A stretch of 64,000 nucleotides of DNA from a virus, in IMG/VR virus record IMGVR_UViG_3300045988_079296, positions 1 to 64,000 of that record. One strand, given 5' to 3'. Every line of letters begins with the position of its first letter. Position 1 is the stretch's first letter. Below are positions 32,847-35,920 of this stretch, piece after piece. Made by a program: the position numbers and the translations under genes. The notes beneath the pieces are model-generated. The model ran no database searches. It saw nothing but the letters and a program-made list of their open reading frames with translations, and was not told the DNA's origin.

Positions 32847-34286
32847 TCAATCAGTCTCCCATTCAATTGGAAGTTCTATACCATAGAAGTCCTCCATGAT
32901 TTCCTTAGTTATCTTCTTAACATTTGGTGAATCCTTTCCTTTTTCAAGCTCCTTGTTAACAAGTTTTTCGCCTCCCTTAACAAGTCTGATAACCTCTTTC
33001 ATGTTATTCTTAGCATTAAAGACTTCATGAACCAAGGCATAATTCTCCAACGTATCTTTCAAATACTTCGCTGGACTCATCTTGTTCGCTTTCGCCAGAG
33101 CCTTCGCAAATTCCTTCGGAGTAGCATCCCAAGGAATAATGATTGCGTTGATGCTATCGAATAACGGGTCACACACTTCTTCGGTCATACCCTTTATCAG
33201 TCCTCTATAATCACGCAAAACTGGATAACAACCGTTCAACATAGCTTCTATAATGAAGCCGTTAATATGAGTTCGACAATATTGAGAATAATGAGCCGCC
33301 CAAGAAGGGTCAACGGCAAATCGACTTCTTCGGAGCTTCGCTGTAACTTCCTTAGAACTTATCTGCCCAAGATACTCCATACCATATTGTTCCGCTACAT
33401 CCCAAATCTTTTGTCCAATATATTCTTCACTAATGTCAGGGTCACGCTTTCGGCTGACCTTGTAAGGCTCTTTGCATTTCGTAGGAGCTACCATATATGC
33501 TTGTTCTATTCCCGAACCTGCTATTTGAACAGAATACTCGGAGTTTTTATTGAAATGCGGTACGGCTCTGATAAGGTCGTCAACGTGCTTCATGGACTTG
33601 AATATATGAGCGGCAAAGAAGTCAATATCACGCTTCGGTTTCATTACAATAGGCATCTTCGCCTTATCGTCCAAATATCTCGGATTAAGCAACAGAACTC
33701 TCGGTATTCCTAAATGCTCGCAGCAACGATATGCAGCAACGTGAGCGCATTCTATGAACAATATCTTCTCCCGTAAAGCCGTAATATTTGAGGCACGTAC
33801 ATCAAAGTAAGCATCGTGAGCAATGAATATTTGTTTTATCTTATCGGTTGGTAAATCGTAGAACTTCCACCAAAATGAAAAGTCTCTATCTCCCCAAGCA
33901 CTTGACTTAGTAGGCATAAAGTTCCACATTATTAAATCGAAGTTATCTACAAGATTATGCCAACGTTCAAGAGCGTTTGGTTCAAATACTCCGATACGAT
34001 TGCTGGGTGGTAAGAAAAACCCATAATAATTATTCTTCCAATATCCCGTTGCTTCATCATATTCATACCCTCCGTTTTGGGAATTGATTTTCAACTTCTC
34101 GGAGAACGTTCCATTTTCAAGTTTCTTGACCTTACTGTCGTAGGTCTTTTGCGTAGTTGCGGCGCAAGACAATTGGGCTATATCGACAACGTGGCCAAGA
34201 GCTTTTAATGCCTTGACCTTCGCTGTTACGTGTTCAATTATTCCTCCGTACTTAGCAATCTCAAAATCTGCTATAAGTATTCTCAT
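32847..34286 (-). CDS. GT-B fold glycosyltransferase (GT4-like)
   Basis: 479 aa. Has the N-terminal MRILIADFEIAKYGGIIEHV pattern and C-terminal INGFIIEAMLNGCYPV (EX7E-type region). Confidence 0.75.
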   Translation of the reverse strand: MRILIADFEIAKYGGIIEHVTAKVKALKALGHVVDIAQLSCAATTQKTYDSKVKKLENGTFSEKLKINSQNGGYEYDEATGYWKNNYYGFFLPPSNRIGVFEPNALERWHNLVDNFDLIMWNFMPTKSSAWGDRDFSFWWKFYDLPTDKIKQIFIAHDAYFDVRASNITALREKILFIECAHVAAYRCCEHLGIPRVLLLNPRYLDDKAKMPIVMKPKRDIDFFAAHIFKSMKHVDDLIRAVPHFNKNSEYSVQIAGSGIEQAYMVAPTKCKEPYKVSRKRDPDISEEYIGQKIWDVAEQYGMEYLGQISSKEVTAKLRRSRFAVDPSWAAHYSQYCRTHINGFIIEAMLNGCYPVLRDYRGLIKGMTEEVCDPLFDSINAIIIPWDATPKEFAKALAKANKMSPAKYLKDTLENYALVHEVFNAKNNMKEVIRLVKGGEKLVNKELEKGKDSPNVKKITKEIMEDFYGIELPIEWETD

Positions 34287-34289
34287 AAT

Positions 34290-34976
34290 CTAAAATGGTA
34301 AATCTGAATCGTACCTTCTCCAAATTTCTTCGGGAAGGTTTTTCTTTATATAACCCTGCTCGTAAAACAATAAACCTGATTGTGAACGATAGAATTTGGA
34401 TGCTAATTTCCACTTAATATCCGCAAACTCTTCAACGGGAACTGAACGAGATAAATACCAATCTTCCTTTTGCTCTTTTACTTGCGCTTGAGAACGTCTC
34501 TTGTAAGAGTGCGGGAACTCCCGATAATAGTCCATGTCAGAGAAGTGAGTTTGTAACGTTTCCCGAACGAATAAGTGGAACGGGTGTCCAACCCCCCAAG
34601 GAGCAAGAACCTTGTACCCTTTATTCTTTTTCAAGAACTTTCTTACCCATTCAACCAACGCATCTTCAATCTCGGTTAATGTCTCACGTCCGAAGTATTG
34701 ATTCAGGTATTTATAAGCATTTTCCAAGGTGACTCCCTTCGGGTATGCCTTATTATACCCGTAATAACTTTCATCCTTGAAATCAAGCTCCAAATGATGA
34801 TACGGGATATTTAAAAACTCAAATAGCTTCGCATCCTCCGCTACTCTCTTCTCATCATTCTCAACGTTCAAAACTTGAACTTCATATTCGGGGAAGAATA
34901 GTACATGAGAACAGCAGAATAAAGCATCGTCCGAATGCGGAGCTACTATGAGATATTTTTGTTTTATTTTTCCCAT
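34290..34976 (-). CDS. PIG-L / LmbE family de-N-acetylase
   Basis: YLIVAPHSDDALFCC (AHPDD-type motif) plus WGVGHPFHLF (HPDH-type motif). 228 aa. Confidence 0.75.
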   Translation of the reverse strand: MGKIKQKYLIVAPHSDDALFCCSHVLFFPEYEVQVLNVENDEKRVAEDAKLFEFLNIPYHHLELDFKDESYYGYNKAYPKGVTLENAYKYLNQYFGRETLTEIEDALVEWVRKFLKKNKGYKVLAPWGVGHPFHLFVRETLQTHFSDMDYYREFPHSYKRRSQAQVKEQKEDWYLSRSVPVEEFADIKWKLASKFYRSQSGLLFYEQGYIKKNLPEEIWRRYDSDLPF

Positions 34977-35920
34977 TTCCTTCTTACGATAATAGGAGAT
35001 AAAAAGCCATCTTTGTGCACACTTTGTGCTAACTTCTTGACCTCTGGAGTTATCTCTGGCAAAGTCTCTTGACCCGAACTATCAGGCAAGAACCCTACAC
35101 GCATACTAATATTCGTACAACCACTACAAGGTCGGAAGTTACGACTGTAATTGTAGAGCATAATTCTCGCAGCTCGAAAACGTTCATGATTCCAAAGCTC
35201 TACAATCCCCATGTCGTTGATATTAGCAATCGGATATTCCCCACGGAAGTCATCGCAACATAAAGAAACGTTGCCATCGTATCGGAAAGCTAATTCACGG
35301 AAAGGCATAGCACAACGCTTGTTGTTATACGACTTATCCAACGGAGCTGCTGCACCGCAATGATTGGCAAGTTTACGTGTTATCTTGTTGTCCTCCTTAA
35401 TCGGTGGCAATAACAATATTCTCGGTTTCTTGTTGTTAGTGTACAACGGTATTCCCTTTTCATAGAATACAACGTTCCACGCCCCTTCGGGAAGTTTATT
35501 TACAAAATTCCAATCTCCCTCGTCCGTATAACAATCCACGATAAGATTGTTTATTCCAGCATCGAAAAGGCTCTCAACATATTCCTCTGTATTCTCGGCT
35601 CTATTTGCCGCATAACCGTTCGTGTACATATGTAAAATAGCATTCGGCAATTCCTCTCGGAATATCTTTACTATTTCCATAATCTTCGGATTCAACGTTG
35701 GCTCTCCATGCTGAGCGAATACTATTTTGCTATTCCAACCTGCTTTAGCAATCTCGCTCGCTATTCTCTTTGCGGTTTTGATACTCATGTGATTCCAAGG
35801 TTTCGTTCCTTTTTCACGCATACCTCTCAACCCACAGAAAGAGCATCCCAAATTACATCCTTCGGTTGGTTCAATTAGCACCGTGAACGGTGCTTGTTGT
35901 ACAATTTTCTTTTTAGCCAT
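34964..35920 (-). CDS. Radical SAM enzyme with a C-terminal SPASM/twitch-like cysteine domain
   Basis: EGCNLGCSFCG is the CX3CX2C motif near the N-terminus. HGEPTLNP is a SAM-binding GGE-like motif. The C-terminal CAMPFRELAFRYDGNVSLCC ... CSGCTN fits CX9-15GX4C ... CX2C. 318 aa. Confidence 0.85.
   Translation of the reverse strand: MAKKKIVQQAPFTVLIEPTEGCNLGCSFCGLRGMREKGTKPWNHMSIKTAKRIASEIAKAGWNSKIVFAQHGEPTLNPKIMEIVKIFREELPNAILHMYTNGYAANRAENTEEYVESLFDAGINNLIVDCYTDEGDWNFVNKLPEGAWNVVFYEKGIPLYTNNKKPRILLLPPIKEDNKITRKLANHCGAAAPLDKSYNNKRCAMPFRELAFRYDGNVSLCCDDFRGEYPIANINDMGIVELWNHERFRAARIMLYNYSRNFRPCSGCTNISMRVGFLPDSSGQETLPEITPEVKKLAQSVHKDGFLSPIIVRRKWEK

Follow-up and report, generated by a model that had tools for sequence, protein, structure and literature searches.

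A capsid-operon cassette of glycosyltransferase, LmbE-like deacetylase and radical SAM genes predicted to place an amino sugar on the DNA of a tailed phage

The window analyzed here comprises positions 1-64,000 of IMG/VR record IMGVR_UViG_3300045988_079296, a 64-kb stretch (GC ~41%) carrying the late region of a tailed phage on the minus strand; approximately 34 kb of the genome lies beyond it. Between 32847 and 35920, inside the head-morphogenesis operon, the window holds a cassette of three coupled genes for a radical SAM enzyme (rSAM), a deacetylase related to PIG-L (PIGL) and a glycosyltransferase (GT). The comparisons described below suggest, with a probability of roughly 0.6, that this cassette is a late DNA hypermodification pathway by which the phage attaches an amino sugar to its own DNA. 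The cassette genes and the gene preceding them are the following:

35922-36854, minus strand: gene labelled MuF-like, 310 aa, immediately upstream of the cassette
34964-35920, minus strand: cassette radical SAM gene, 318 aa
34290-34976, minus strand: cassette deacetylase gene, 228 aa
32847-34286, minus strand: cassette glycosyltransferase gene, 479 aa

The arrangement agrees in every detail with what a sequence-only reading of this DNA had described. Read on the minus strand, the MuF-like gene and the rSAM gene are translationally coupled and separated by a 1-nt gap (TAA-A-ATG), the rSAM and deacetylase genes overlap by 13 nt, with the start ATG within AAATGGGAAAAATAA, and the deacetylase and GT genes are separated by a 3-nt gap (TAG-ATT-ATG). 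The motifs quoted in that reading were also found, namely CNLGCSFC (C22/C26/C29), C203-X12-G216-X4-C221 and C265-S-G-C268 in the rSAM, IVAPHSDDALF and GVGHPFH in the deacetylase, and MRILIA and FIIEAMLNGCYPV in the GT, and the motif residues are invariant in the homologue alignments (A1, A2 and A3). The three genes are real and not chance open reading frames (ORFs), as indicated by 186 clusters (90% identity) of PIGL-like homologues, 368 such clusters of GT homologues, and 80 syntenic IMG/VR loci. The head-module setting is likewise as described, with the portal gene upstream and the prohead protease and major head protein genes downstream. The gene called MuF-like does lie directly upstream; its label derives from a CKHC...HPYCRC motif visible in the sequence, the 35922-36854 protein having no Pfam or PHROG match.

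The product of 34964-35920 passes the Pfam thresholds for Radical_SAM (PF04055; 9.5e-16, 58.9 bits against a cutoff of 29.5) and SPASM (9.3e-12), and is matched partially by NCBIfam N_Twi_rSAM (6.6e-11). Among 18 homologues (43-89% identity), C22-X3-C26-X2-C29 is invariant, as are C203, C221, C222, C265 and C268, and there are zero Cys residues beyond C268, pointing to a single twitch-type auxiliary cluster. When the rSAM profile was compared with the PDB, BtrN was the best match (4m7s/4m7t, 1.7e-15), with core and twitch cysteines aligned and ~22-25% identity in the aligned stretches, followed by anaerobic sulfatase maturase (3.6e-4). These sequence features bear out the earlier guess of a twitch-type enzyme akin to BtrN and argue for a BtrN-like radical SAM protein with one twitch-type auxiliary cluster, whose reaction might be an alcohol oxidation like that of BtrN, the 2-deoxy-scyllo-inosamine dehydrogenase, which turns a secondary alcohol into a ketone on an amino-cyclitol or sugar. 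A tblastn search of GenBank phages with this protein retrieved only ~23%-identical "BtrN protein" genes from Campylobacter phages CP20, CPt10, CJLB-12 and vB_CjeM_WX1. Campylobacter phage IBB_35 is reported to encode an LmbE-like protein and a polysaccharide deacetylase that have been read as capsule-degrading (PMC3322345); the BtrN- and LmbE-like genes of Campylobacter phages might instead be DNA-modification genes.

The deacetylase is a more distant member of its family. The window protein falls below the gathering cutoff of Pfam PIG-L PF02585 (14.2 bits against 28.2, E 0.065, residues 9-27 only), none of the 120 deacetylase homologues listed has a precomputed Pfam domain, nothing was found in PHROGs, NCBIfam or, by tblastn, GenBank phages, and the phage-only PIGL profile A1 matched zero solved structures by sequence. 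A search of 1.84 billion representatives with A1 retrieved 343 proteins, including some with PIG-L domains above Pfam gathering (P0391, P0402, P0418 and P0425), and PIG-L was matched by 15 of the 42 remote single-domain proteins from this search. Comparison of A1 with a Pfam-verified PIG-L set by hhalign gave 98.65% probability (E 4.9e-16, 210 columns), and a broadened deacetylase profile matched, near full length, the N-acetylglucosamine (GlcNAc) de-N-acetylases Dbv21 (3dfi, 8e-13) and teicoplanin Orf2* (2x9l, 1e-11), in addition to chitobiose deacetylases. Across 54 sequences, six residues (P13, H14, D16, D17, G128 and H134) never vary, and conservation of H131 and P132 reaches 90% or more. 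These motifs align with the PHxDD (PHLDD) and GxHPDH metal-site motifs of 3dfi/2x9l, with Phe at the third position of HPDH in the phage family (HPFH in the cassette deacetylase against HPDH in the solved LmbE enzymes), and H14, D16, D17, H131 and H134 are the predicted metal/catalytic residues. The AlphaFold2 (AF2) model has a pLDDT of 93.9. The proposal of a PIG-L/LmbE enzyme thus stands on profile-profile comparison and motifs, but not on the Pfam cutoff, which the window protein misses, and the protein is filed as a putative, divergent LmbE/PIG-L-superfamily de-N-acetylase.

For the GT, the evidence came mainly from structure. The protein scores below the gathering cutoff of Pfam Glycos_transf_1 PF00534 (18.2 bits against 26.4), has no match in PHROGs, NCBIfam or GenBank phages (tblastn), and its profile A2 matched zero solved structures by sequence. 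The AF2 model (pLDDT 92.1, pTM 0.90) gave 319 Foldseek matches in the PDB at E <=1e-3, the top ones all being GT-B enzymes with target TM-scores of 0.6-0.7. The best match was the phage T4 alpha-glucosyltransferase (AGT) bound to DNA (1y6f/1y8z, 2.5e-13, 14% identity), with PimA, TarM, BshA, MshA and SdgB close behind. In the viral structure library BFVD, the neighbours after one orthologue included annotated DNA alpha-GTs and two GTs of Bacillus phage SP-15. Within the N342-G-F-I-I-E347 segment, E347 is invariant in A2, and one Glu of the canonical EX7E motif is recognisable. The GT4 assignment made from sequence therefore holds for the GT-B fold, with T4 AGT, PimA, BshA and MshA as neighbours, and fails for the Pfam cutoff and the full EX7E motif. 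The model points to a GT-B-fold glycosyltransferase of the retaining GT4/T4-AGT-like type, which we predict to be an N-acetylhexosamine (HexNAc) transferase acting on hydroxymethyl-pyrimidine in DNA.

Some of these neighbours would also fit a cassette that makes a glucosaminyl small molecule, much as bacillithiol, mycothiol and paromamine are made, or that remodels a host wall or lipopolysaccharide (LPS) precursor, aiding lysis or excluding other phages. Structurally the GT lies close to BshA, MshA, PimA and TarM, LmbE enzymes work in the pathways named, BtrN comes from aminoglycoside synthesis, a GH108 endolysin is encoded a few genes downstream, and LmbE-like genes of Campylobacter phages have been read as polysaccharide-active (PMC3322345). 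Nevertheless, no cysteine ligase, 2-deoxy-scyllo-inosose synthase or aminotransferase was found among the ~36 window proteins scanned, fusions of the deacetylase to TAGT, a TET-associated glycosyltransferase domain (see below), speak against such a role, and the six informative distant contexts of the deacetylase family are all DNA-related and none envelope-related. This explanation is accordingly the least probable of those considered, with only a very small chance of being right.

The acceptor is better indicated by a gene some distance upstream, to which the sequence-only reading had pointed as a sign that DNA might be modified:

43947-45050, minus strand: 5-hydroxymethyldeoxyuridine (5-hmdU) DNA kinase HMUDK, 367 aa (Pfam HMUDK_hel PF18723, 3.4e-50), just upstream of the portal gene

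That pointer proved apt, since the gene encodes a 5-hmdU DNA kinase and homologues of the cassette genes recur in fusions with, or next to, enzymes that modify DNA bases. HMUDK is kept upstream of the portal gene in relatives. It marks the genome as thymidine-hypermodifying, and is probably either a pathway partner of the cassette or an indicator of its acceptor base. Two conserved small genes follow it (43607-43972 and 43050-43580). TAGT and HMUDK were reportedly defined by Iyer et al. in 2013.

No hydroxymethylase or dioxygenase was detected among the ~36 window proteins scanned. Followed in relatives, the region beyond the start of the window leads into a replication module, and the contig of the closest relative (L001/L093) encodes a ThyA homologue of 399 aa, including a long extension at the C-terminus (L093 13746-14945; PF00303, 3.9e-24). 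This protein keeps the catalytic Cys and has Asn (uracil type) at the base-discriminating position. This position is occupied by Asn in thymidylate synthases and by Asp in the CMP hydroxymethylase MilA. The next genes encode a Pol III alpha subunit (14942-18481) and a YfbR-like 5'-deoxynucleotidase (18492-19133), and from their sequences the three look like a module replacing dTMP by modified dUMP. The presence of HMUDK in the window and of the ThyA homologue in the relative makes 5-hmdU the most probable acceptor. DNA, a virion protein and a small molecule had all been left open as acceptors; HMUDK, together with the fusions and neighbourhoods that involve DNA modification, narrows the choice to DNA, so that the acceptor is most likely phage DNA and not the capsid.

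The kinase could, however, take part in a different DNA route, in which HMUDK phosphorylates 5-hmdU and the amine exposed by the deacetylase on a GT-made sugar or conjugate displaces the phosphate, yielding an N-linked amino-sugar-methyl-dU. HMUDK is kept in the clade and is contiguous with cassette homologues in two distant loci, L133 and L138; the amino acid:DNA transferase AADT, the enzyme of such displacements, is encoded directly upstream of PIGL in L133; and amines are attached in this way by known HMUDK pathways (PMC8989533). Against this, AADT went undetected in the window, the GT would need some other first acceptor, and GT-B and TAGT enzymes normally use hydroxyl acceptors directly, T4 AGT being the top structural match. 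We regard this kinase-activated displacement as unlikely, even if it is the strongest of the competing explanations.

The conservation of the cassette was followed in 80 IMG/VR loci carrying the deacetylase at 33-92% identity. A nucleotide search of the cassette region against GenBank phages gave zero matches, and with the tblastn results above this leaves the cassette without a closely related phage in culture. The order MuF-like gene, rSAM (where present), PIGL, GT, 660-aa protein, 788-aa protein, protease and major head protein is kept, even where the major head protein is only ~60% identical, and a homologue of 35922-36854 precedes the cassette in nearly all 80 loci. Synteny in relatives holds for the GT and the deacetylase, a core pair present in 78 of the 80 loci (as a separate GT-B gene in 74 and as a PIGL::TAGT fusion in four, the remaining two being truncated), but not for the rSAM, which was found in 28. 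Indeed, an obligate three-gene trio was rejected, the rSAM being absent from most loci, where the MuF-like gene directly abuts PIGL. The rSAM, located after PIGL in L035 and present in two copies in L072, is an accessory tailoring enzyme of the cassette. The two L072 paralogues (7661-8668 and 10224-11162, 45% and 64% identical to the window rSAM) flank the PIGL::TAGT fusion.

In the four loci with that fusion (L070, L071, L072 and L077), PIGL forms the N-terminal half of a ~500-aa protein whose C-terminal half scores beyond the gathering cutoff for TAGT (PF20691), and these loci have no GT-B gene. Independent PIGL/TAGT fusions exist in both orders (P0314 and P0415), and an rSAM::PIGL fusion (P0309) keeps the same gene order. 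Another accessory gene encodes an FkbM methyltransferase (PF05050). In rSAM-less genomes (L008-L025, L031 and L046) it lies between HMUDK and the homologue of gene g121; in L073 (8789-9607) and L074 (2746-3564) it occupies the rSAM slot between the MuF-like gene and PIGL, and in L071 (9142-9963) it is located just upstream of PIGL::TAGT. Among the loci with the region covered, 16 have FkbM only, four have rSAM only, three have neither, and none has both. The sharing of this accessory gene suggests that the kinase locus and the cassette form one functional unit.

The PIGL-GT junction is an insertion hotspot (L004 10687-11364, L019 10596-11357, L024 10673-11407, L064 10582-11226 and L035 11672-12379). 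The inserts were considered as extra pathway enzymes and rejected as such, being GIY-YIG/NUMOD3 homing endonucleases, with the exception of L035, in which the insert within the cassette is an N6/N4 DNA methyltransferase.

This constant position, between the MuF-like gene and probable internal proteins across the 80 loci, is an argument for the cassette acting on a virion or internal head protein. In that case a head protein, for instance the 660-aa protein in its Ser/Asp-rich segments or the capsid, would be O-HexNAcylated by the GT, and the deacetylase would expose an amine, altering immune recognition or ejection. The 660-aa protein does have Ser-rich acidic tracts, and the structural neighbourhood of the GT includes SdgB and GtfA, two GT4 enzymes that attach O-GlcNAc to proteins. 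In mycobacteriophages, capsid and tail proteins are glycosylated by GTs encoded in the structural operon, which also counts in favour of a protein acceptor. The contexts of distant family members bear directly on this explanation. Seven distant members of the deacetylase family were looked up; one locus (L087) was too short, and the six informative ones contain the following:

L133 (portal and MuF 42% identical): DNA ligase ... AADT (PF18724), PIGL, 94-aa ORF, rSAM, TAGT, 117-aa ORF, HMUDK, portal
L138: PIGL, GT homologue (29% identity, 452 aa; hidden Markov model (HMM) 2.4e-97), HMUDK
L137: Tet_JBP dioxygenase, then rSAM homologue containing an intein (HMM 1e-59), then PIGL
L085: TAGT::PIG-L fusion adjoining ThyX and a UDG-PHP protein
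L135: PIGL and a GT-family protein adjoining a family-B polymerase and nucleases
L139: helicase, GT1, methyltransferase, PIGL, TnsA-like nuclease

All six contexts are DNA-related, and none outside the focal lineage is a capsid context. In L133, the cassette homologues sit between AADT and HMUDK, two hallmark thymidine-hypermodification enzymes. The distant rSAM homologue of L137 occupies 4640-6763, interrupted by the intein. The capsid-operon position is thus lineage-specific and functionally not telling. The link to head genes is lost outside the lineage, where the cassette is found next to HMUDK and AADT (L133) or in replication and modification modules (L085, L135, L137, L138 and L139), the alternative partner of the deacetylase, TAGT, is a DNA-base glycosylation family, and L035 has a DNA methylase inside the cassette. 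Glycosylation of a virion protein is for these reasons improbable, more so than the kinase-activated route.

Starting from the genes observed, their family and fold membership, their conserved active-site residues, and their neighbourhood and fusion associations, we infer the acceptor base, the identity of the sugar, the order of the steps and the rSAM reaction of a pathway for DNA hypermodification. First, 5-hmdU would replace thymidine at replication through a ThyA-family dUMP hydroxymethylase encoded outside the window. Late in infection, the GT-B enzyme would move a HexNAc from a nucleoside diphosphate (NDP)-sugar onto the hydroxymethyl oxygen of 5-hmdU in double-stranded DNA, and the LmbE-like zinc amidase would strip the N-acetyl group, leaving a protonatable amine. 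Where present, the BtrN-like rSAM would abstract a hydrogen from a carbinol carbon of the sugar to give a ketone, or would rearrange the sugar; in other genomes the FkbM methyltransferase would tailor the sugar instead. The outcome would be a bulky, cationic base blocking restriction and other nucleases. HexNAc transfer followed by de-N-acetylation, with an optional oxidation of the BtrN type, is the most economical reading of the data. A role of the cassette in DNA hypermodification, by this pathway or by the kinase-activated variant, can be held with good confidence; as to the specific O-hexosamine (HexN)-methyl-dU chemistry, the chances are nearly balanced.

Several observations weigh against placing an amino sugar on DNA in this way. 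A Foldseek search of the deacetylase model against the PDB returned no LmbE enzyme among the best 50 matches, and only weak Rossmann-like ones (UDP-GlcNAc 2-epimerase, CARF, SDR; E >=7e-3). The GT model matches T4 AGT little better than it matches GT4 enzymes whose acceptors are proteins or small molecules (SdgB, GtfA, BshA and MshA). No AADT (aGPT-Pplase, PF18724) was found in the window, either by tblastn with the L133 AADT or by Pfam on the ~36 window proteins. The sequence of the ThyA homologue, found in a relative and outside the window, fits a hydroxymethylase or a methylase alike. The cassette is ~8 kb from the kinase, between the MuF-like gene and probable internal head proteins, a position that also suits virion-protein modification. 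Finally, because known HMUDK pathways displace the phosphate instead of glycosylating the hydroxyl, the kinase and the GT would compete for one oxygen unless their sites differ. Only part of the 5-hmdU is hypermodified in thymidine-hypermodifying phages (PMC8989533), and by analogy the kinase and the GT may act in different sequence contexts.

From upstream to downstream, the gene order in the window is large terminase, UvrD-type helicase, 5'-3' exonuclease, HMUDK, portal, six unknowns, the 310-aa gene and the cassette, followed by the 660-aa protein, the 788-aa protein, a GH108 lysozyme pair, prohead protease, major head protein and tail sheath. The features located in this region, apart from those given above, are:

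51526-53196, minus strand: large terminase
47202-47987, minus strand: 261-aa product carrying DUF2786 and DUF7168 domains, its gene located between those of the helicase and the 5'-3' exonuclease
42996-43026, minus strand: strong terminator-like hairpin (12-bp stem and T run; consensus scan), between the kinase operon and the portal gene
41203-42936, minus strand: portal, upstream of the cassette
30806-32788, minus strand: 660-aa protein with Walker A GGAGIGKS at 259 and very acidic Ser/Asp-rich tracts, pI 4.9
28435-30801, minus strand: 788-aa protein with a weak HipA_C/kinase-like match
27341-28068, minus strand: GH108 lysozyme (137 aa) and PG_binding_3-like protein (105 aa), separate overlapping genes between the 788-aa gene and the prohead protease gene
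25663-27261, minus strand: prohead protease, downstream of the cassette
24140-25639, minus strand: major head protein, downstream of the cassette

The consensus scan detected no terminator comparable to the 42996-43026 hairpin between the portal gene and the cassette, which makes a common transcript of the cassette and the portal-to-head genes probable; the site counts of this promoter/terminator scan were not above those of shuffles. The 660-aa and 788-aa proteins may be packaged or ejected, and the GH108 and PG_binding_3 assignments rest on Pfam matches of the orthologues in L088 and L089. The MuF-like gene encodes 310 aa in the window versus 553-711 aa in several relatives (L004 7151-8812, L026 7953-9980, L034 7813-9948 and L035 7944-9944). 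This spread suggests variable C-terminal extensions, which may be domains for cargo or toxins of the kind that other MuF proteins have. At the start of the window, a large frame of 1173 codons (1-3519, minus strand) stays open past the edge; in relatives it corresponds to a ~1460-aa fibre protein with a weak Mtd_N match, which hints at a diversity-generating-retroelement target. As regards what lies beyond the 3' end of the window, 61574-62869 has no relatives, and upstream of 59409-59951 there are just small ORFs.

The proposed pathway shares features with several known systems. Phage enzymes are known to glycosylate hydroxymethyl-pyrimidines: BshA/MshA-like GT-B enzymes act on phage DNA in DLP3 and RB69, with arabinosyl-5-hydroxycytosine (arabinosyl-5hoC) as a product (PMC13326640), and phage TET-associated GT-A and GT-B enzymes install hexose (Hex), HexNAc or heptose on 5-hydroxymethylcytosine (5hmC) (Pyle et al., bioRxiv 10.1101/2023.12.21.572611). 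The cassette resembles these systems and the T4 alpha- and beta-GTs in the structure of its GT-B enzyme, whose nearest relatives are T4 AGT and BshA/MshA-like DNA GTs, in the use of TAGT as an alternative partner, in the predicted late, post-replicative action on a pre-installed hydroxyl, and in its packaging-gene neighbourhood, DNA-modification genes often adjoining terminase genes (PMC13229309). Unlike them, the cassette GT always has an LmbE-type de-N-acetylase as its partner and in many cases also a BtrN-like rSAM or FkbM, none of which these two papers mention; the acceptor in this HMUDK genome is probably 5-hmdU and not 5hmC or 5hoC, and an amino sugar would be produced.

Thymidine hypermodification proceeds through a dUMP hydroxymethylase, 5-HMUDK and AADT/aGPT-Pplase, followed by an rSAM isomerase, a pyridoxal phosphate (PLP) decarboxylase, a flavin adenine dinucleotide (FAD) lyase or an acetyltransferase (PMC5889632, PMC8989533), and gp53 of phage M6, which is spore-photoproduct-lyase-like, has been described as the first radical SAM enzyme with a part in adding a DNA modification (PMC8989533). 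HMUDK, the ThyA homologue of the closest relative, tailoring by an rSAM and the L133 arrangement between AADT and HMUDK are all reminiscent of this pathway. The differences are that AADT was not found in the window, that a sugar and not an amino acid is the predicted addition, and that the cassette rSAM is BtrN/twitch-like, in contrast with M6 gp53.

The logic of a GT4-like HexNAc transferase, an LmbE de-N-acetylase and a twitch rSAM dehydrogenase is that of butirosin (BtrM/BtrD/BtrN) and, for its first steps, of mycothiol (MshA/MshB) and bacillithiol (BshA/BshB) synthesis; among solved enzymes, the broadened deacetylase profile comes closest to Orf2* and Dbv21, and the rSAM profile to BtrN. 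Unlike those systems, the cassette enzymes are viral, their acceptor is most likely a DNA base, the other pathway genes are absent, and identity is 10-25%. Should 5-hmdU be the acceptor, an O-glycosylated hydroxymethyluracil (hmU) would result, as in kinetoplastid base J (beta-D-glucosyl-hydroxymethyluracil), to whose glucosyltransferase family TAGT is related. It would differ from base J in that the hmU would arise pre-replicatively via a ThyA homologue and not by JBP oxidation, in carrying a predicted amino sugar subject to further tailoring, and in its viral anti-restriction context. Four of the papers cited above (PMC13326640, bioRxiv 10.1101/2023.12.21.572611, PMC8989533 and PMC13229309) mention no deacetylase, LmbE or BtrN-like enzyme, and the literature yielded no report of a DNA-linked sugar being de-N-acetylated or oxidised in a BtrN-like way; an earlier computational prediction is possible.

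Extended to the whole group, the proposal is that the ~100-kb myoviruses of a widespread clade, from the gut and the environment, have thymidine-derived bases bearing a cationic amino sugar (glucosaminyl-hydroxymethyl-dU, an "amino base J"), which in some members is oxidised by the rSAM and in others O-methylated by FkbM, an idea that we put forward tentatively and at slightly less than even odds. If it is true, LmbE deacetylases and twitch rSAM dehydrogenases would be two enzyme classes new to DNA hypermodification, both families would gain a nucleic-acid substrate, and sugar tailoring in the style of aminoglycosides would take place directly on DNA, meaning that post-glycosylation tailoring of DNA glycans exists. 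Sugars (glucose, arabinose and HexNAc) and amines (putrescine and aminoethyl groups) are known on DNA; an amino sugar would join bulk with positive charge. Phage DNA hypermodifications govern the action of restriction enzymes, CRISPR nucleases, and sequencing and cloning enzymes, and are a source of useful enzymes. The cassette family is common, with hundreds of protein clusters and many human-gut contigs, and it could affect both metagenomic library preparation and studies of phage-host defence.

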